Shown: positions 5,022 through 23,544 of the stretch, one piece after another
Position numbering within the stretch: position 1 is the first letter of the stretch
Layout of the letters: the number at the start of each line of letters is the position of its first letter
Origin: Acaryochloris thomasi RCC1774
Lineage (GTDB): Bacteria; Cyanobacteriota; Cyanobacteriia; Thermosynechococcales; Thermosynechococcaceae
Length of the DNA stretch: 32,000 nucleotides
Direction of reading: 5' to 3'
Assembly (NCBI RefSeq): GCF_003231495.1
Contig: NZ_PQWO01000004.1
Location: 120,001 to 152,000 of the forward strand
Translations under genes and position numbers: made by a program
Notes under the pieces: generated by a model
Databases searched by the model: none
Told to the model about the DNA's origin: nothing
Seen by the model: the letters and a program-made list of their open reading frames with translations, nothing else

Positions 5022-5308
5022 GCCTCTCGCTTCTCCTGAATGGCCTGCCGAAACCCCAGGACAATGAAAATGTTGGAGAGTGTTAGAAACACTTCTGCTC
5101 CGCCATGTAAAAAGTCAACATCGGCTAGGGTCAGGCCATATTTTTGAAGTGCATACACCCCTGCTGGAATTGTCACTGCAACGAATAGCAGCGTTAGGTA
5201 AAAGCCAATTATCGCTAGGCGAGGAAACAGGCCCGATTTGGTCACGACCCATAAAAAGCCTAGATAGGGAAAGAGTGACAGTGCAAAGAGGGTGTCCTTA
5301 GAAATCAT
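5018..5308 (-). CDS. DUF3593-like small membrane protein
   Basis: 96 aa with three hydrophobic helices. It is adjacent to a DUF2499/Ycf49-like gene, a pairing conserved in cyanobacteria and plastid lineages. Confidence 0.7.
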   Translation of the reverse strand: MISKDTLFALSLFPYLGFLWVVTKSGLFPRLAIIGFYLTLLFVAVTIPAGVYALQKYGLTLADVDFLHGGAEVFLTLSNIFIVLGFRQAIQEKREA

Positions 5309-5351
5309 GATTGGGGTTCAAGACTCGATAAATATCAGAAGATCAGGGAAA

Positions 5352-5666
5352 TTAGGCTGTACCTTCCTGCGCCGCTTTATGCTGACGCCAGATCCACCAG
5401 GCGGCAAGCCAAACGGTGGTGTTACCCACAACGGTCATGAACGCTTGAAGCGTTACCATCCATTCGAGCTGGGGAGGGTTGTCGAAAAAGTGCCAGGTGA
5501 TTGCGCACATGGCACTTATAAGCAAAGGCAGCATTGCTAAGGAGAGCCACCGCCAGCTTTTGTTTTGGGTGACGTCGCCGTAGGTCCAGATCAGCCAAAT
5601 TGCAACGAGCCACTCAACCACGCTTGATATGTGGATAATCCAGGTTGGAATTGAGAGCGCGTGCAT
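5352..5666 (-). CDS. DUF2499 / Ycf49-like membrane protein
   Basis: 104 aa, Trp-rich and hydrophobic: IPTWIIHISSVVEWLVAIWLIW...WHFFDN...WLAAWWIW. Confidence 0.7.
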   Translation of the reverse strand: MHALSIPTWIIHISSVVEWLVAIWLIWTYGDVTQNKSWRWLSLAMLPLLISAMCAITWHFFDNPPQLEWMVTLQAFMTVVGNTTVWLAAWWIWRQHKAAQEGTA

Positions 5667-5725
5667 GGCAAGGTCCGTGTGAGTCTAGGATAATCTTACA
5701 GAACTGTGGTGGTAGGAGTGACGGT

Positions 5726-6769
5726 GTGCAGAAGATCCAGGCGGTTTTATGTGGCTACTATGGCTTTGGGAATGGCGGAGATGAGGCGTTGCTGGCGGCG
5801 CTGCTGCAGATGCTGCCGGAGCATGTGACGCCGCTGGTGTTGTCCAGTGACCCAGCCGCAACAGAGAAGCTGCACGGCGTTGAGAGTTGCGATCGCAACC
5901 ACTTTTCCACCGTCTTTTCTGCCCTGCGGTCCTCTCAAGCCTTCATCTGGGGCGGCGGTAGCTTAATCCAAGACGCCACCAGCGCTTTAAGTCCGGTTTA
6001 CTATACAGGACTCATGTTTCTGGCTCAAAGGCTCGGACTTAAAACAATTGCTTGGGCGCAGGGGATTGGTCCCCTTAACTATCGTCGCAATCGCTGGCTA
6101 GCAAAGCAAACCTTTAAGGGCTGTGCAGGGGTTAGCGTTCGCGATCGCAACTCCACTCAATTCATCCAAGATTGGAAGCTGCAGGCCAGCCAAGCCCCTG
6201 ACCCCGTTTGGGCGCTGGACGCCACCTCTGTTTATCGGCGGGTCGAACTCCCCAACCCTCGCATTGCCGTGTCGCTGCGTGCTCACCCCCTGTTGACACC
6301 GCAGCGACTGCAGCACCTAAGCGAAGCGTTAGTGCTGTTCCAGAATCAAACTCAAGCCTCGATTCTGCTGCTGCCCTTTCAGCCCCGCCAAGATCTAGAC
6401 ATCGCCCAAGCGCTGCAGAAACAGCTCCAAGGGCCGAGTCAGGTGCTGCAGCTCAGCGATCCGCGTCAGCTCAAAGGCGTTTTTCAGACCGTAGATATGA
6501 CCATTGCCATGCGCCTCCATGCTTTGATTATGGCTGCGGCAGAAGGCTGTCGCTGCGTGGGTTTGAGCTATGACCCCAAGGTAATGCAGCTCATGACAGA
6601 TATCGACTGTCCCGGCTGGGAACTTGAAGATTTGCCCACTCAACCGCAGACGATTAGTCAAGTTTGGGTTGAGCACTATCGTCAGGGACAGGGGCTGACC
6701 GAAGCCAGCAGGAATGGACGATGCAGCCAAGCTTTAGAACATCAAAAGATTTTAGAGCAGGTGCTTTAG
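5726..6769 (+). CDS. csaB: polysaccharide pyruvyl transferase CsaB
   Basis: The N-terminus VQKIQAVLCGYYGFGNGGDEALLAALLQMLP is the CsaB hallmark. The longest ORF starts at 5645 but overlaps the DUF2499 gene, so the GTG at 5726 is the more plausible start. Confidence 0.8.
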   Translation: MQKIQAVLCGYYGFGNGGDEALLAALLQMLPEHVTPLVLSSDPAATEKLHGVESCDRNHFSTVFSALRSSQAFIWGGGSLIQDATSALSPVYYTGLMFLAQRLGLKTIAWAQGIGPLNYRRNRWLAKQTFKGCAGVSVRDRNSTQFIQDWKLQASQAPDPVWALDATSVYRRVELPNPRIAVSLRAHPLLTPQRLQHLSEALVLFQNQTQASILLLPFQPRQDLDIAQALQKQLQGPSQVLQLSDPRQLKGVFQTVDMTIAMRLHALIMAAAEGCRCVGLSYDPKVMQLMTDIDCPGWELEDLPTQPQTISQVWVEHYRQGQGLTEASRNGRCSQALEHQKILEQVL

Positions 6770-15325: not shown

Positions 15326-16294
15326 TCAAACATCAAGAGGACTGCGGACACCCAATACACCTTGATTGAGAACATGGGTGTATACCATAGTCGTTTTGAG
15401 ATCTTTATGTCCCAAGAGTTCTTGCAGCGTCCGAATATCGTAGCCATTCTCTAATAAATGGGTGGCGAAGCTATGACGCAGGGTGTGACAACCTACTTTC
15501 TTGTTAATGCCTACTTTTTGAGCGGCTCTCTTGACTGCTTTTCGGATGACGCTCTGATCTAAATGGTGCCGCCTTGTTTTACCGCTGCGAGGATCGATGG
15601 ACCGTTTAGTAGAGGGAAAAACGTATTGCCAAATCCATTCTCGATTGGCCTCTGGGTATTTGCGTTCGAGAGCATTGGGCAGGTATACCTCTCCATAGCC
15701 TTGAGCCAAGTCATCTTGATGAATTTGTTTGACTTGAGTGAAATGAGCTTGCAAGAGTGGAGTAAGTGTTTGGGGGAGAACGGTCACTCTGTCACGTTTG
15801 CCCTTAGTTTCTCGAACTGTAATTTGTGAATGCCCGAAATCGAGGTCTTTAACTCTCAATCGTAAGCCTTCAGTCAACCGCATTCCTGACCCGTAGAGGA
15901 GTTTAGCAAACAGTTGCTGAATGCCGGACATGCCTTGCAGTAAGCGTTTTACCTCACCAGTTGTAAGGACTGTTGGTAGATGTTGTGATTGTTTGGCGCG
16001 AACGGCATCAATAGAGTCACCTAGAGGTTGCTTAAGAACGTATCGATAGAGGAACAGCAAAGCGCTGAGAGCCTGATTTTGGGTCGACGCAGCGACATCT
16101 TGGTGAACCGCTAAATGGGTTAGAAAGGCTTCTACTTCTGGTTCTGACATCTCTTGCGGGTGACGCTTATTGTGAAACAGAATAAATCGTCGAATCCATT
16201 GAACATAGCTTTCCTCGGTTCGATAAGCATAGTGCTTGGTACGCATGACATCACGCACTTGATCAAGCAGCTTTTTCGGTTTAGTCGCTTGCAT
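15326..16294 (-). CDS. intI: integron integrase IntI
   Basis: The N-terminal SAM-like domain is [33 protein letters not shown]. The catalytic residues are present: R ([12 protein letters not shown]), HxxR ([12 protein letters not shown]) and H/Y ([16 protein letters not shown]). The IntI-specific insertion is also present: [42 protein letters not shown]. The longest ORF reaches 16369, but the ATG at 16294 ([10 protein letters not shown]) matches usual IntI N-termini better. Confidence 0.9.
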
Positions 16295-16515
16295 CTGACA
16301 TGCCCAATAAAACCCTAGATTGTCATATATGGCGGAAAATTGCCTTCTAAATTTCTGTGAAGCAGCCAAGAAAACATCCCTAATTCCTTTTATGCAAAGA
16401 CATTAGCCGATTAGGATAAGATTCTTATATCAGGCTAGTTGCTCAATATATCTTTCAAGCTAAAAGTGTTACCCTGCCTTTAGCTAAGACTTTCAACGCG
16501 GTTTATTCTTTCTTC

Positions 16516-16550
16516 TTAGGAGGCAATTTGCCTCCTAAGCATAGTTAGCC
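16516..16550 (+). other. attI-like recombination site
   Basis: A 23-nt palindrome TTAGGAGGCAA-T-TTGCCTCCTAA is followed by GCATA-GTTAGCC. The segment CCTAAGCATAGTTAGCC resembles the attI1 simple site CCTAAAACAAAGTTAGGC (from memory). Several additional TTAG[GC] motifs lie upstream at 16410-16490. Confidence 0.55.
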
Positions 16551-16606: not shown

Positions 16607-16900
16607 ATGGCTTACGCTCATGAAATAAAGTTTTTCATCAAAGATAAAGATTTATACGCTGCTCTATTTGATAATCCGCCCTTTTTTGCTAATGAGTTTT
16701 GGATTAAAAATGTGAAAGCACAGGAGCTGGGAATATCTGAATTACCTCAAAATGTAAAACTTGAGCAAAAGTATAAAGTGGAAGACCTAGGAATCAAGCC
16801 ATTTCACACAACTAAACCTGAATTTGAATTCATGGATGCGTTGGCTGAAACTGCCTGGAAAAAGGGTGTTAAACTGGCCATTGGCTCTTTTCTCCCTTGA
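16607..16900 (+). CDS. integron cassette 1 ORF, hypothetical protein (97 aa)
   Basis: A single ORF between the attI-like GTT (16544) and attC1. It is AT-rich compared with its flanks, and I recognise no family. Confidence 0.55.
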   Translation: MAYAHEIKFFIKDKDLYAALFDNPPFFANEFWIKNVKAQELGISELPQNVKLEQKYKVEDLGIKPFHTTKPEFEFMDALAETAWKKGVKLAIGSFLP

Positions 16901-16954: not shown

Positions 16955-17046
16955 GTCTAACAATGGTATGCAAATGGACGCTCGAAACACGCTACTTGTC
17001 AACGCTTTAAAATAATTCTCGCGCCCCTGATACCAAGACGTTAGAA
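16955..17046 (+). other. attC site 1
   Basis: It begins with R''-like GTCTAAC and ends with R'-like GTTAGAA, which are inverse complements at 6 of 7 positions. The internal arms TGGTATGCAAATGGACGCTCG and CGCGCCCCTGATACCA pair imperfectly, with bulges. Confidence 0.75.
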
Positions 17047-17088
17047 ATACGTATCTACTCACAATCTAGTACAGCGATAAAACTGCCA

Positions 17089-17769
17089 ATGCCGCTTGAA
17101 CTACATAACTACGTTTGGAGTGGAGAATGGTTGATTCAGATTGAGAGTCAGCCCAGTCATATTGATGGTGTACTAGATACCGTTCAAAATGTACGAAAAA
17201 GTTCCAATCTAGATTGGGAAGATATTTATTCAGCCTATTATGAGTGTGAAGAAGACGGCACCATTACTTTCTACGAAGGCGAAAGTTCAGAGGCGGGGAA
17301 TCCAGGGGTATGGACTTATGTCGTGTACGACTGTCCTGAAGGAAAGGAGGAGGTTTTATCCAATCCCAACATTGATGTTCTAGCTGCCTTATTAAAAGTT
17401 GAGCGTGGCATTCAAGACAGGAAAAACAGCAGAGCAGATCTACTACCACACGCAGAAAATGCGGTGGTCGATATTCGCAAGCTACGTGACTATTGCCTTA
17501 ATCCAGAGCATGATGCTGGAAAGCATAAGGCTCGTTTGTTTTTCTCAATTTTAGGGATGACTGCTGAACACGCTGATGAATTGCAAGCGATTCTGCTCAA
17601 AATTGTTAAGACAGGTGACGTTTGCTTAGGAAGGCAAGATCAATTTGGGCAACGCTACACACTAGATTTTGTTCTTGAATGGCACAATAGAAGTGCGACT
17701 CTTCGGAGTGGATGGATGCTCGAAAATGGTTCAACAGTCCCGAGATTAACAACCTGTTATCCATTGTAG
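17089..17769 (+). CDS. integron cassette 2 gene A: unknown N-terminal domain plus DUF6883-like C-terminal domain
   Basis: 226 aa. The C-terminal half, VVDIRKLRDYCLNPEHDAGKHKARLFFSILGMT...GQRYTLDFVLEWHNRSATLRSGWMLENGSTVPRLTTCYPL, fits the DUF6883 pattern as I remember it (K-L-x-x-Y-x-L-N-x-x-H...KA-x-x-F ... P-R-L-x-T-x-Y-P). I do not recognise residues 1-115. Confidence 0.65.
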   Translation: MPLELHNYVWSGEWLIQIESQPSHIDGVLDTVQNVRKSSNLDWEDIYSAYYECEEDGTITFYEGESSEAGNPGVWTYVVYDCPEGKEEVLSNPNIDVLAALLKVERGIQDRKNSRADLLPHAENAVVDIRKLRDYCLNPEHDAGKHKARLFFSILGMTAEHADELQAILLKIVKTGDVCLGRQDQFGQRYTLDFVLEWHNRSATLRSGWMLENGSTVPRLTTCYPL

Positions 17770-17787
17770 TTAGTGGAGGTAAGAACA

Positions 17788-18036
17788 ATGACAGCAAATT
17801 CTATCAAGTTACTAGATGTTGTAGCATTGACAGTCGATTTACCAGATTACAACTTGTGGTGTGGGCAAGTTGGTACCGTGGTTGAGACGTTGGCTACTGA
17901 GACTGCATTTGAAGTTGAGTTTAGCGATCGTGACGGACGAACATTTGAGTCTATTGGATTACGATCAGAGCAAATAATGGTGTTGCATTTTGAGCCAGCA
18001 TCGCCAGACTTAAAGCCTGCAATGGTAGCAACATAA
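17788..18036 (+). CDS. integron cassette 2 gene B: DUF4926-like small protein
   Basis: 82 aa from the ATG at 17788, preceded by GGAGG at 17775-17779. It starts 18 nt after the stop of gene A. LLDVVALTVDLPDYNLWCGQVGTVVE...FEVEFSDRDGRTFESIGLRSEQIMVL matches the DUF4926 pattern from memory. Confidence 0.65.
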   Translation: MTANSIKLLDVVALTVDLPDYNLWCGQVGTVVETLATETAFEVEFSDRDGRTFESIGLRSEQIMVLHFEPASPDLKPAMVAT

Positions 18037-18141
18037 ACCAGCGCAACAACCGTATTGCAACGAAGAGTATCAAAAACCTGATAAGGGTTCGGTGTTGTGA
18101 TTAATTGTCTCAGTCGTAAAAGCTTTTCCGTCTATTTGTTT

Positions 18142-18233
18142 TTCTAACAAGCCCATGCAAGGGACGCTCCGCAATAAGTGGCTGCTGGGTACTTTAGATC
18201 CTGTTCGCGCCCCTGGTGGCTGAGCAGTTGGCC
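18142..18233 (+). other. attC site 2 (terminal, more degenerate)
   Basis: It has the same length as attC1 and shares the blocks TCTAACAA, ATGCAA, GGACGCTC, CTTTA and TCGCGCCCCTG. It ends with GTTGGCC. Confidence 0.65.
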
Positions 18234-18293: not shown

Positions 18294-19757
18294 TTACCGG
18301 CGCTGCGAAATACTGAGGGCTAGAACATAGACATAGCCACTCCAAAACAGCGCCAAAAACGGAATTGATAGAAAATGCTGGTTGTTGAGGGCCACCCCAA
18401 TCGTAATTGTTAGATAAACAGCCATAAACAGCTCAAGATATGGAAGCAGATTTCTTGCGGCCCGGTATTTCTTGGTTTTCCAGCTTTCTTGGCGACTGAC
18501 AACCCCGTGCTTTGGAGTGCGGATAAAATCAACACCACCCCCAAACAAACCTGCACAGACTGCTAGAGACTGATTAATACTTAGCCCAATCCCCACACTC
18601 ATGAGCAGAACGATGTTGTGAACTAGCTTCCACAGCGGTAGCTTAAGAGGTTGCTCACGCGTAGAAACGAAGTAGAAGCACAAAACACTCAACGTCGTGA
18701 TCAAAAATAGAGGCAGATGAATGAATACTCCATGCTGCCAAGGTGCCTGCGTTAGGTAGATCTGATAGGGCAGAGACAGCAGTAGCAACGCCATCAACAG
18801 CAAATAGTTAAAGTTATTCGTTAAATGCAGAAACGCCTCCCCTTTGACGCTGAGCGGTGCATTGGATTTGAGAATCGGCAGCAACAGCTTCTTCATTACC
18901 TGACTGGCCCCTTTTGCCCACCGAAACTGCTGAGCTTTGAAGGAATTCATCTCCATCGGTAGTTCCGCCGGTACGATCATCTCCGGTAAATAAATGCACC
19001 TCCAGCCCTTAAGCTGCGCTCGATAGGATAGATCTAAATCCTCTGTCACCGTGTTGTGCTGCCATCCACCGGCATCGGCAATGGCCTCAGTCCTCCAGAT
19101 ACCAGCGGTGCCGTTGAAATTGAAAAAGCATCCCGAACGGTTGCGAGCCGTTTGCTCGGTCACGAAATGCCCATCCAGCATCAGGGACTGCACTTCAGTC
19201 AATCTAGAATAGTGACGATTGATGTGTCCCCATCGGGCCTGCACCATCCCCAACTGAGGATCTGAAAAGTAATGCACCATTTTGAGCAGCGTGTCAGGTG
19301 CCGGGACAAAATCAGCGTCAAAAATCATCACCAGCTCCCCAGATGCTGACTGGAGGCCATGTTCTAATGCACCCGCTTTGAAGCCCGTCCGATTGTGGCG
19401 ATGAATGTAGTGAATATTTAGATCTCGTGTTTGCAGCTCTTCGACCTTGGAGCGGCACAGGGTTTGCGTTTCGTCCAGAGAGTCATCGAGAACCTGAATT
19501 TCTAGTTTTTCCCGAGGGTAATGAATGTGGGCAATGGCTTCTAGCAGGCGGTCAACGACATTGATTTCATTAAAGATGGGTAATTGAATCGTGACCGACG
19601 GCAGTTCCCAATCAGAATAGTAAGACTGAGGCTGAGGAACATTGTCTCTATATTTATAGAAGCGCCAAACAATCGAGACTTTGTGGAGGCTGTATAGCCC
19701 GATAATGATTAAAAGACCCAGATAGATTTTATAGATATTTTCTGATAGCGCGCTCAT
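18294..19757 (-). CDS. family 2 glycosyltransferase, processive beta-glycan synthase type (CslA/cellulose-synthase-like)
   Basis: Motifs VLDDS, FDADF (DxD), TEDLDLSYR (TED) and QQFRWAKG (QxxRW). One N-terminal and several C-terminal transmembrane helices. Confidence 0.85.
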   Translation of the reverse strand: MSALSENIYKIYLGLLIIIGLYSLHKVSIVWRFYKYRDNVPQPQSYYSDWELPSVTIQLPIFNEINVVDRLLEAIAHIHYPREKLEIQVLDDSLDETQTLCRSKVEELQTRDLNIHYIHRHNRTGFKAGALEHGLQSASGELVMIFDADFVPAPDTLLKMVHYFSDPQLGMVQARWGHINRHYSRLTEVQSLMLDGHFVTEQTARNRSGCFFNFNGTAGIWRTEAIADAGGWQHNTVTEDLDLSYRAQLKGWRCIYLPEMIVPAELPMEMNSFKAQQFRWAKGASQVMKKLLLPILKSNAPLSVKGEAFLHLTNNFNYLLLMALLLLSLPYQIYLTQAPWQHGVFIHLPLFLITTLSVLCFYFVSTREQPLKLPLWKLVHNIVLLMSVGIGLSINQSLAVCAGLFGGGVDFIRTPKHGVVSRQESWKTKKYRAARNLLPYLELFMAVYLTITIGVALNNQHFLSIPFLALFWSGYVYVLALSISQRR

Positions 19758-20407: not shown

Positions 20408-20884
20408 CTATGCTGGGCAATTCAGTGCCTTTCGAAAAATAATCTTATCGTCTCCAGCCTTGTAATAGTCACGAATCCTTGCTTCTTCGTCATATCCGTT
20501 TTTACGGTAAAAAGAGCGTGTCTGCTCAAAGCTATCTACGCCTGAAGTTTCCACTAACAGCAATCGTTCGCCGCGTTCTTTTAAGACTTCTTCCACATGA
20601 CGAATGAGTGCAGTGCCACGTCCTTTACCTTGCTCACTCGGGAGGATGCCGATGAAGTACAGATTCCATACGCCTTCAGAAAATGGCTCCGGTGCGTAGT
20701 AGGCAGCTCCGACAAGTCCATTTTCGTCATCGGTGATCCAAAAATTTTCACTTTCTCCTTGACTACCGAGATGCTCGCTCATCATCTCACCAAATCCATC
20801 AAGCTCTTGCGGCGAGAATAGCCCGGTCGCTTCGGCTATTGCCAGAAGGCTTACCTTGTCTTCAGTTATTGCATTTCGAATCAT
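20408..20884 (-). CDS. GNAT family N-acetyltransferase
   Basis: Acetyl-CoA-binding motif ILPSEQGKGRGTALIRHVEE, then ...RSFYRKNGY. Confidence 0.85.
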   Translation of the reverse strand: MIRNAITEDKVSLLAIAEATGLFSPQELDGFGEMMSEHLGSQGESENFWITDDENGLVGAAYYAPEPFSEGVWNLYFIGILPSEQGKGRGTALIRHVEEVLKERGERLLLVETSGVDSFEQTRSFYRKNGYDEEARIRDYYKAGDDKIIFRKALNCPA

Positions 20885-21008: not shown

Positions 21009-21527
21009 ATGACTAAGGAAAAAATTGAGAACGTCTTTGGGGCGTTATCCCTCGCTTTGGCAGACGATCTTCTTCAAGTAACACAGAATCATGTCCCTTC
21101 GTCATCACCTGCCGCTGCGATATCACTTGTTGGTCACATGCCAGGGATGAGTATCAATCAACTATGTGGAGCGCTAAGACTATCTCACTCCGGAGCTGTT
21201 CGACTCGTTGACAGGCTTGTTCGACATGACCTTCTCTGTCGGGGACAGTCCGCAACGGATGGTCGTACAATCTCCCTTACCCTGACACAGGCAGGAAAAG
21301 TCAAATGTCAACAGATTCTCTCGTCTCGTCAAAACTTGCTTGCCTGTGCGCTTGATAGTCTAAATCCTTCTGAGCGAGAAACATTGGGTCGTCTTGCTGA
21401 AAAGATGCTGCGCAACATCCTGAAAGGAGAAGAACATGCCTACAAGATTTGTCGGCTTTGTGATCCTTTTATCTGCACTGATTGCCCTGTAGAGAATGAG
21501 ATCATGGAGCGCGAAACAACTGTCTAA
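21009..21527 (+). CDS. MarR family transcriptional regulator with a C-terminal Cys cluster
   Basis: Winged-HTH core MSINQLCGALRLSHSGAVRLVDRLVRHDLLCRGQSATDGRTISLTLTQAG. The C-terminus is CRLCDPFICTDCPV (CxxC-x4-CxxC). Confidence 0.8.
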   Translation: MTKEKIENVFGALSLALADDLLQVTQNHVPSSSPAAAISLVGHMPGMSINQLCGALRLSHSGAVRLVDRLVRHDLLCRGQSATDGRTISLTLTQAGKVKCQQILSSRQNLLACALDSLNPSERETLGRLAEKMLRNILKGEEHAYKICRLCDPFICTDCPVENEIMERETTV

Positions 21528-22464: not shown

Positions 22465-23544
22465 CTAAAGCTGCAAAGAAAGCTGTTGGGGGCCATTTTG
22501 AGCAGAACTGAGGTTAGAGACAGTCAGGCCCAGTAATCTGACGGATTGCTCCGGATCAAGATGGGTGCGCAGCAGTTCATGGGCTAGCTGCCGGATCGCC
22601 TCAATGTCGTCTAGTGGTTCGCTCAACGTTCGACTGCGGGTAATTTGTTGGTAGCTGGCGTATTTAATCTTCAGCGTCAAAGTTGTGCCGGAGCGCTGAT
22701 TTTCCGCCAGCCGCTGCTGGAGAAGAGTTGCGATCGCATCCAACTCCCGCACCATCTGTTCTGGTTCGGTTAGGTCAGTCAGAAAACTCCGCTCCGCCCC
22801 AATCGATCGGCGAATCCGGTTCGGATTGACTGCTCGCTGATCGTCCGCTCTTGCAATCCGGTAATAGTAGTGCCCCACCTTACCGAACTGAGCCACAAGA
22901 TTGGCCTCAGACCATCGCAGCAGATCTTGGCCAGACTGAATCCCCAGCTCGTGCATCTTGCCCGCCGTCACCTTGCCAATGCCGTGAAACTTTGCAATCG
23001 GGAGGTCGCTCACAAAAGCCTGCGCCTGATCGGGCGGAATCAAAGATAGGCCATCCGGCTTATCTAAATCAGAGGCCATCTTTGCCAGGAATTTATTAAT
23101 TGAGACTCCAGCAGATGCCGTGAGCTGAGTCTGAGAATAAATACGCCGCTTGATCCGGTGGGCAATCTCTATCGCCGATCGGATCTCAAGCTTATTGGTG
23201 GTCACATCCAAATAGGCCTCGTCCAAAGAGACGGGTTCCACAAGGTCTGTATATTCTCTAAAAATGGCTCGGATTTGTCCTGAAACCTGACGGTAAACCT
23301 CGAATCTAGGACGGACAAACATTAAATCCTTGCATCGTAAAGCTGCCGTTCGAGAAGGCATCGCCGAGTGAATGCCGTAGCGCCTTGCCTCATAACTCGC
23401 GGCAGCAACTGCACCTCTTTGCTCCGGTCGTCCCCCCACGACAACCGGTTTGCCCCGCAGGGCTACATTGTCCCGTTGTTCAACGGAGGCGAAGAACGCA
23501 TCCATATCGATGTGCAGGATTTTTCGGAGCGTCATTGCCGTCAA
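22465..23544 (-). CDS. dinB: DNA polymerase IV
   Basis: ILHIDMDAFFASVEQRDN, SLDEAYLDVT and GIGKVTAGKM are the Y-family polymerase motifs. The Met at 23535 is a possible alternative start. Confidence 0.92.
   Translation of the reverse strand: MTAMTLRKILHIDMDAFFASVEQRDNVALRGKPVVVGGRPEQRGAVAAASYEARRYGIHSAMPSRTAALRCKDLMFVRPRFEVYRQVSGQIRAIFREYTDLVEPVSLDEAYLDVTTNKLEIRSAIEIAHRIKRRIYSQTQLTASAGVSINKFLAKMASDLDKPDGLSLIPPDQAQAFVSDLPIAKFHGIGKVTAGKMHELGIQSGQDLLRWSEANLVAQFGKVGHYYYRIARADDQRAVNPNRIRRSIGAERSFLTDLTEPEQMVRELDAIATLLQQRLAENQRSGTTLTLKIKYASYQQITRSRTLSEPLDDIEAIRQLAHELLRTHLDPEQSVRLLGLTVSNLSSAQNGPQQLSLQL

Follow-up and report, generated by a model that had tools for sequence, protein, structure and literature searches.

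What is encoded by the second gene cassette of the integron of Acaryochloris thomasi RCC1774, and what could hold it there? The cassette lies within 32,000 nucleotides (nt) of contig NZ_PQWO01000004.1 (positions 120,001 to 152,000; this whole stretch is referred to as the window, and coordinates count from its first letter) and contains two co-oriented genes, A and B, whose products carry the Pfam domains DUF6883 and DUF4926, respectively. A preliminary description of the DNA had suggested a toxin/immunity or defence pair. We consider it probable, though well short of certain, that cassette 2 is a toxin-first, type II-like toxin-antitoxin (TA), or toxin-immunity, module, a reading that appears well supported by comparative evidence.

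We propose the following model for the pair. The DUF6883 domain of gene A would form a small alpha+beta endoribonuclease-like toxin, with an active site centred on the invariant residues H141, K147, K131 and Y135. The product of gene B, translated from its own Shine-Dalgarno (SD) sequence, would fold as an acidic SH3-like barrel and block the toxin one-to-one by binding. Together the two genes would constitute a selfish mobile unit (window 17058-18062) that is present in hundreds of cyanobacterial species, as well as on plasmids and phage-like contigs elsewhere. Such a unit would have gained an attC site and then been captured by the integron of A. thomasi, where it would act through addiction, loss of the cassette or of the array being penalised. 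The pairing of the two families was taken by the preliminary description to be undescribed, but it has already been predicted and nothing in it is conceptually new here. A preprint of August 2026 (bioRxiv 10.64898/2026.08.28.747851) places DUF6883 by computation, as the new "BECR-Tox3", in the colicin-like group of BECR ribonucleases (RNases), reports frequent fusions of DUF6883 to Phage_Mu_F, and describes a conserved downstream DUF4926 gene as the putative immunity gene of what it terms a 'toxin-immunity' pair.

The two genes are as the preliminary description had drawn them. Gene A encodes 226 amino acids (aa) with an unrecognised N-terminus and a C-terminal DUF6883 domain, where aa 119-225 align with positions 2-108 of the 110 in the Pfam model PF21814 (E 3.5e-25; 88.9 bits, cutoff 27). 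Its stop codon, TAG at 17767-17769, is followed by a spacer of 18 nt and then by gene B, an 82-aa DUF4926 protein with its own GGAGG (aa 8-65 align with positions 1-57 of the 57 in PF16277; E 2.5e-25; 88.1 bits, cutoff 29.1). If translation began instead at a GTG at 17773, the protein would have 87 aa. No SD sequence precedes gene A. The NCBIfam, PADLOC and PHROGs libraries returned nothing useful for the cassette proteins. C1752_01629 of A. thomasi RCC1774 (P0121) shows 100% identity with the product of gene B and likewise begins at the ATG, giving 82 aa. For gene A, the protein collection lacks the exact 226-aa product, the best match being 84% identical, and gene A may be unannotated or differently annotated in the public record. 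Neither exact product had a match in the assembly index.

The coupling of the two genes is conserved far beyond this locus. The survey of adjacency across genomes that the preliminary description had suggested was carried out on one genome per species of GTDB r232 and gave 506 DUF6883 stretches confirmed by tblastn, of which the best 80 loci were examined by calling open reading frames (ORFs) and searching them with hidden Markov models built from alignments made in this analysis. Nearly all of these 80 loci are labelled cyanobacterial, a few having uninformative or other metagenome-assembled genome labels. A DUF4926 ORF lies directly downstream on the same strand for every DUF6883 ORF in these loci (81 of 81), mostly after a gap of 3-20 nt, and DUF4926 likewise follows DUF6883 in Nostoc PCC 7107 and in the window copy. 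Pairing of this regularity is not due to chance, and two small co-oriented neighbours whose adjacency is conserved across genomes are one mark of a type II TA system. With the occurrence of the pair in four phyla and in viral contigs, the TA-type half of the suggestion in the preliminary description stands, while the anti-phage half, considered below, finds no direct support. Three relatives depart from the usual form and look degraded (L-numbers are our locus designations). In L053 (2155-2914) separate ORFs encode the N-terminal domain and DUF6883, and in L047 and L081 shortened DUF6883 ORFs are separated from DUF4926 by gaps of 110-120 nt; in all likelihood the toxin genes have become pseudogenes here while the antitoxin has been kept.

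We assign the toxin role to the DUF6883 domain because of its enzyme-like model, its invariant polar residues, its C-terminal position and a fusion linked to nucleic acids. The AlphaFold2 (AF2) model of the domain (aa 120-226), with predicted local distance difference test (pLDDT) values above 90, comprises three helices (residues 129-136, 145-155 and 159-175) followed by four antiparallel strands (178-183, 187-198, 201-212 and 219-225). This matches the BECR topology of a pre-alpha helix, an alpha helix and strands beta1-beta4 at the level of secondary structure only, with helix 129-136 as an extra element. Residues K131, Y135, H141 and K147 are invariant in 10 of 10 sequences drawn from five phyla and viral contigs, as are W209 and the structural residues L137, G144, A148, F151, G156 and G187; H146 is variable. 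The invariant His is located in the loop preceding the second helix, with the invariant Lys and Tyr close by, and by alignment this appears to be the conserved His near the pre-alpha element, with Lys or Arg in its vicinity, that marks colicin-like BECR domains. We take DUF6883 to be likely an RNase of the BECR fold, an assignment that we owe to the preprint.

The position of DUF6883 within longer proteins supports the view that it behaves as a C-terminal toxin 'warhead'. In a structure search of BFVD, DUF6883 matched two phage proteins named "minor capsid", 473 and 497 aa long, at their ends (E 1.6e-9 and 5e-9; root-mean-square deviation 2.0 A across 106 residues), and also the end of a protein annotated as a Zn-peptidase. 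We infer that the minor capsid proteins, annotated in BFVD as "minor capsid protein" only, are of MuF type because of the frequent Phage_Mu_F fusions reported in the preprint. In Rahnella the domain stands at the end of a 330-aa protein, with a DUF4926 gene after it. In Gloeotrichia echinulata (P0115, L128 3001-3754) the Cauli_VI domain, the hybrid-binding domain found at the N-terminus of RNase H1, is fused directly to DUF6883 in a protein of 159 aa, with DUF4926 downstream and IS605/TnpB elements on the flanks; this fusion supports a link between DUF6883 and nucleic acids. A divergent architecture is found on a plasmid of Mycobacterium sp. SMC-8 (L121 580-2265), where DUF6883 occupies the middle (aa 310-418) of a 561-aa protein and is followed by a 148-aa hypothetical protein in place of DUF4926, possibly a different immunity protein.

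The same fusions raise the question of whether we are dealing with a polymorphic toxin and its immunity protein, aimed at neighbouring cells or delivered by phage particles instead of acting within the producer. The ends of the phage minor capsid and other longer proteins would fit such a role, toxin followed by immunity gene is the conventional order of that class (PMC5576092), and the preprint uses the term that belongs to it. We nevertheless find this very unlikely for cassette 2, as gene A has no MuF domain, no signal peptide and no known trafficking domain, its N-terminal region lacking any match in Pfam or PHROGs of the trafficking or family kind that polymorphic toxins carry. Most cyanobacterial members are bare 110-aa domains with no export route, and across the family the N-terminal part varies while the toxin stays constant, the reverse of polymorphic-toxin logic.

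Gene B, for its part, looks like a neutraliser: its product is small and acidic (isoelectric point, pI, 4.2) and contains no enzymatic motif, and its model is a five-strand SH3/KOW/Tudor-like barrel (pLDDT 78.6) for which Foldseek returned only generic SH3/KOW/Tudor matches. In the survey DUF6883 never occurs without DUF4926. DUF4926 does occur without DUF6883, namely as extra or truncated copies in L012 and L055, as lone copies in phage genomes, and behind HigB/HigA-like (Gp49/HigB-XRE) pairs in viral contigs. Since a neutraliser may stand by itself and a toxin may not, this asymmetry fits DUF6883 being the toxin. In three high-GC viral contigs (L092 3280-4222, L103 ~1054-1643 and L091 2512-3131) DUF4926 follows, and overlaps the end of, an XRE helix-turn-helix (HTH) gene resembling HigA; L092 has a Gp49/HigB-like toxin gene upstream of the XRE-HTH gene, and in L091 the arrangement adjoins a DUF6883-DUF4926 pair. 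DUF4926 may serve, or remain from, more than one toxin type.

The opposite assignment, with DUF4926 as the toxin and DUF6883 as the antitoxin, has to be weighed against these observations. Antitoxin-first is the commonest type II gene order, and the N-terminal domain of gene A is found elsewhere on proteins in the antitoxin position (a DUF433 fusion before DUF5615 and a 176-aa protein before Doc, described below). The CcdB and MazF toxins are SH3-like barrels, as the product of gene B would be. The presence of DUF4926 alone in phages and as extra copies would be impossible for a toxin, however, and the protein is acidic, has a Pfam core of 57 residues and finds its best folds among KOW, Tudor and SH3 domains, not MazF or CcdB. 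It is DUF6883 that has the invariant His, Lys and Tyr and that takes the toxin position on longer proteins and on phage minor capsid proteins of the presumed MuF type. A reversal of roles therefore seems to us scarcely credible.

Several observations weigh against a TA module with DUF6883 as its RNase toxin. Foldseek comparison of the full-length model of A with the PDB gave nothing at E < 1e-3 and no colicin, CdiA or BECR structure among the top 50, the best E value (1e-2) being that of designed curved-sheet and NTF2-like proteins. No family related to DUF6883 emerged when the PDB and Pfam were searched by sequence and profile, and A, B and their profiles gave chance-level matches only when compared by sequence with solved structures. 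Since no solved structure matched DUF6883, the BECR fold is not confirmed independently. The domain has a pI of 6.6 and so is not basic, unlike many RNase toxins. Relatives of A and B are 70-90% identical across cyanobacterial orders, which is atypical of fast-evolving toxin-immunity pairs. Promoter and terminator signals in cassette 2 do not exceed chance expectation, and no sigma-70-like promoter was found in the leader at 17058-17088. A perfect 10-nt inverted repeat around the start of gene A (17064-17073 and 17169-17178) was considered as an operator or hairpin and rejected because it is not conserved in relatives. Type II antitoxins have an autoregulating DNA-binding domain; gene B gave no HTH, ribbon-helix-helix (RHH) or AbrB match, so that classic type II autoregulation is not evident, and some relatives have instead a separate HTH gene, as upstream of the pair on the Meiothermus plasmid, or N-terminal fusions on the toxin. 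Finally, the sole toxicity experiment of the preprint concerns BECR-Tox2, with none on DUF6883/DUF4926.

Some of these points would equally suit a pair with no part in conflict, in which A binds or processes RNA without being toxic and B serves as its partner or chaperone. Such a pair could be highly conserved, A would not be expected to match a solved toxin structure, and we ourselves reach the toxicity of A indirectly. What makes this explanation highly improbable is the manner in which the pair is distributed, which is patchy, multi-copy and mobile, taking in plasmids, viral contigs, an integron, a tandem copy (L023) and insertion sequences (IS) beside L128. The fusions to phage minor capsid proteins, of MuF type if our assignment is right, and the pseudogenised copies L053 and L047 also speak against it.

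Turning to this mobility, the pair is found on plasmids of Rubrobacter (Actinomycetota), Nitrosococcus and Rahnella (Gammaproteobacteria) and Meiothermus (Deinococcota) at 35-49% identity, and in high-GC viral contigs beside tail genes; long 'fusion' ORFs in the latter were discarded as artefacts of ORF calling, the real genes encoding 109 aa. A tblastn search of 50,697 isolated phage genomes using A's C-terminal domain and using B gave no match. By blastn, DNA similarity with the closest relatives is confined to 17058-18062, which comprises both genes, a leader of ~30 nt and a trailer of ~26 nt; the attC flanks lie outside this shared unit and are unconserved elsewhere. Integron integrases were absent within 6 kb both at all 80 related loci and at the Nostoc PCC 7107 locus. 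The absence of IntI near relatives indicates that the pair is mobile in its own right and became a cassette by capture in this one case; its place in an integron is exceptional, and the expectation that an integron would be the typical setting of the pair is contradicted. Three further observations concern copy number and surroundings. An uncultured cyanobacterial contig (L023) holds tandem DUF6883-DUF4926 pairs at 5068-5667 and 5998-6580; the genome of FACHB-471 has two separate loci (L032 and L072), so the module can be multi-copy; and the closest 226-aa relative (L009 5290-8705) lies amid direct repeats of 42-129 nt that contain the cyanobacterial GCGATCGC (HIP1) motif.

The sole undescribed element of the gene pair is the N-terminal domain of gene A, which is common to three TA families. 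The first 110-115 residues have no match in Pfam, NCBIfam, PHROGs or PADLOC, and the region is acidic (pI 4.2) and modelled by AF2 with a pLDDT of only 28-64. It is nonetheless a real domain, because it exists as a free 110-aa protein, including one on plasmid pAQ7 of Picosynechococcus PCC 7002. Searched against 1.84 billion representative proteins, its profile found 38 clusters only, and all matches with a named source organism are cyanobacterial; a 1248-aa Calx-beta repeat protein that also matched was judged spurious. A weak likeness of residues 23-72 to the PadR winged helix (E 0.057) became no stronger with the family profile (E 0.7) and was dropped as evidence. In L127 (623-1721) the domain is fused to DUF433 directly upstream of a DUF5615 (PIN-like) toxin gene, in L006 (4001-4914) it makes up the first 110 of the 176 aa of a protein whose gene runs into the start of a Doc/Fic gene, and it is fused as well to helical regions without an assigned family. 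In every TA context, across three unrelated TA families, it is the N-terminus of the product of the first gene. The free-standing genes have no consistent neighbour.

Within the DUF6883 family this domain is one of several that can be exchanged. The DUF6883 domain stays ~70% identical while the region before it belongs to one of at least six unrelated kinds or is missing altogether: the bare form of 110-126 aa is by far the commonest, the 226-aa form is found in only ~8 of the 80 loci, and further cyanobacterial forms have 241, 270 and 318 aa. The N-terminal domain is therefore an optional accessory confined to a minority of the family, for which a regulatory or sensory role is a guess that we make with low confidence. 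A more ambitious version, which we find doubtful, is that it is an undescribed portable module specific to TA operons and that the alternative N-terminal regions are likewise sensors; a portable module of this kind could be a new domain for sensing or regulation, through which TA pairs that are otherwise constitutive would answer to a trigger, for instance a phage protein or a stress signal.

This variability also speaks for an abortive-infection or anti-phage module, in which B would restrain the toxin until infection and the variable N-terminal domains would sense phage components. The parts are those of the TA module, with another trigger and another benefit, so the two explanations overlap. 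A near-constant DUF6883 behind so many unrelated N-terminal regions resembles an effector with interchangeable sensors or adaptors; the pair does occur in phage-like contigs beside tail genes; lone DUF4926 genes of phages could be counter-defence antitoxins; and defence genes are known cassette cargo in integrons (PMC10661359). Against it, the PADLOC-DB v2 defence-system models match neither A nor B at E <= 1, none of the loci inspected lies in a defence island, and most members of the DUF6883 family have no N-terminal domain with which to sense anything. We regard abortive infection as unlikely, and neither a defence reading nor any special weight of the integron context is supported by the present results. 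A TA module captured by an integron remains the explanation that we favour, and the integron itself is considered next.

The features of the integron and its surroundings are collected in the table.

Table. Coordinates of the integron, its cassettes and neighbouring genes in the window
Feature	Position	Strand	Remarks
intI integron integrase	15326..16369	-	TIGR02249, E 4.3e-144, 479.7 bits (cutoff 265)
Candidate attI/cassette-1 junction, GTTAGCC	16544..16550	+	Sequence reading; position putative
Cassette 1, 97-aa ORF	16607-16900	+	No match in Pfam, NCBIfam, PADLOC or PHROGs
attC1, 92 nt	16955..17046	+	R'' GTCTAAC, R' GTTAGAA; direct repeat with attC2
Cassette 2, 1187 bp	17041..18227	+	Delimited by the G/TT points of both R' boxes
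Short leader	17058..17088	+	Travels with the module in other genomes; blastn similarity starts at 17058
Gene A, 226 aa, ending PRLTTCYPL	17089-17769	+	N-terminal domain followed by DUF6883
Gene A, N-terminal domain, aa 1-~114	17089..17430	+	Acidic, without family match
Gene A, DUF6883 domain, aa 119-226 and stop	17443..17769	+	PF21814; putative RNase toxin
SD sequence of gene B, GGAGG	17775..17779	+	8 nt before the ATG at 17788; sequence reading
Gene B, 82 aa, DUF4926	17788..18036	+	PF16277; putative antitoxin/immunity protein
attC2, 92 nt	18142..18233	+	R'' TTCTAAC, R' GTTGGCC; 3' end of cassette 2 and of the array
GT2 glycosyltransferase gene, chromosomal	18294-19757	convergent to the array	Follows attC2
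GNAT acetyltransferase gene	20408-20884	-	Beyond the integron; ordinary chromosomal gene
MarR regulator gene	21009-21527	+	Beyond the integron; ordinary chromosomal gene
Y-family (DinB/IMS) DNA polymerase gene	22465-23544	-	Beyond the integron; ordinary chromosomal gene

The array has the properties of integron gene cassettes, that is, attC sites with R'' and R' core sites that fold as imperfect palindromes, set beside intI. The integrase, which additionally matches the Phage_integrase and SAM_4 domains, is oriented divergently from the cassettes. At the candidate attI junction the bases TTAGCC agree at 5 of 6 positions with the reverse complement of the attC1 R'' box (GTTAGAC). Folding of the attC1 bottom strand gives the canonical attC hairpin, in which the R box pairs over 6 bp, the spacer stays unpaired and the L stem is bulged. 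The two attC sites start 1187 nt apart and are ~75% identical across aligned surrounding regions of ~130 nt, and the window contains no third copy. The recombination point of attC1 (G/TT, between 17040 and 17041) forms the 5' end of cassette 2. When G18227 is placed before TTAGAA (17041-17046), the result is exactly the reverse complement of the R'' box of attC2, such that an excised circular cassette would rebuild a perfect 7-bp R box, which fixes the boundaries at 17041-18227. The single attC-bounded, two-ORF cassette beside intI that the preliminary description had reported is hence correct, and only the ends of its span (17043-18233) were a few bases off. As the gene 3' of attC2 is a chromosomal one, the array consists of two cassettes only. 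The cassettes have a GC content of 0.37-0.45 against 0.47-0.54 in the flanks, a difference that may be counted in support of a foreign origin. Cassettes holding a two-gene TA module are a common and selfish cargo of integrons, and their persistence is attributed to the death of cells that lose them (PMC10661359); two genes in one cassette are accordingly not unusual for this class, contrary to what had been supposed, and the precedent supports, by analogy, a TA module in cassette 2.

If this reading were confirmed, DUF6883/DUF4926 would be a new TA family with an experimental footing, very abundant in cyanobacteria and reaching plasmids and phage-like contigs elsewhere, and the known RNase toxins would gain a further member, one whose SH3-like inhibitor is unusual. 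Furthermore, the shuffling of N-terminal domains on the toxin would provide a lead on how TA modules acquire regulation or sensing.

The pair can be compared with several known systems. The nearest is BECR-Tox3 as described in the preprint, which has the same two Pfam families in the same order; its topology and placement of His and Lys agree with our DUF6883 model, and its association with phage minor capsid proteins is reproduced by our structure search. The integron copy and the cyanobacterial 110-aa, Cauli_VI and 241-, 270- and 318-aa fusions are not mentioned in the available part of that text. Colicin D, colicin E5 and CdiA-CT share with gene A a small alpha+beta domain built of a pre-helix, a helix and a four-stranded sheet, and with the pair a conserved His with Lys or Arg nearby and a small acidic inhibitor gene downstream. 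They differ in possessing delivery domains and in having no sequence or Foldseek similarity that we could detect; in the pair, moreover, the immunity fold is SH3-like and the terminal strand of the toxin carries T-T-C-Y in place of a second His. The characterised members of the colicin-like BECR group, to which the preprint (bioRxiv 10.64898/2026.08.28.747851) assigns DUF6883, are mostly tRNA cutters. MuF polymorphic toxins, which are C-terminal toxin domains with small immunity genes usually downstream (PMC5576092), would share the C-terminal fold through the minor capsid ends that we take to be of MuF type, whereas gene A has an unrelated, cyanobacteria-only N-terminal domain where they have MuF.

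HigBA (Gp49/HigB with XRE HigA) is, like the pair, a toxin-first operon of two genes for small cytoplasmic proteins that is carried on plasmids, prophages and integrons, and in viral contigs DUF4926 after Gp49/HigB-XRE occupies the slot of the DUF6883-DUF4926 pair. The toxin of HigBA, an RNase of the RelE fold, belongs to a different Pfam family, and its antitoxin has the DNA-binding domain of HTH or RHH type that gene B lacks. The TA cassettes of Vibrio integrons carry their own promoters. Cassette 2 differs from them in that none was detected, in its TA family and in its setting, a tiny cyanobacterial array of two cassettes as opposed to a superintegron. In common with phd-doc, ccd, parDE and higBA of the Vibrio superintegrons, it places a two-gene TA pair in a single attC-bounded cassette, an arrangement thought to stabilise the array (PMC10661359). 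The copy in A. thomasi would indicate that the capture of TA modules known from Vibrio integrons takes place in chromosomal integrons of cyanobacteria as well.

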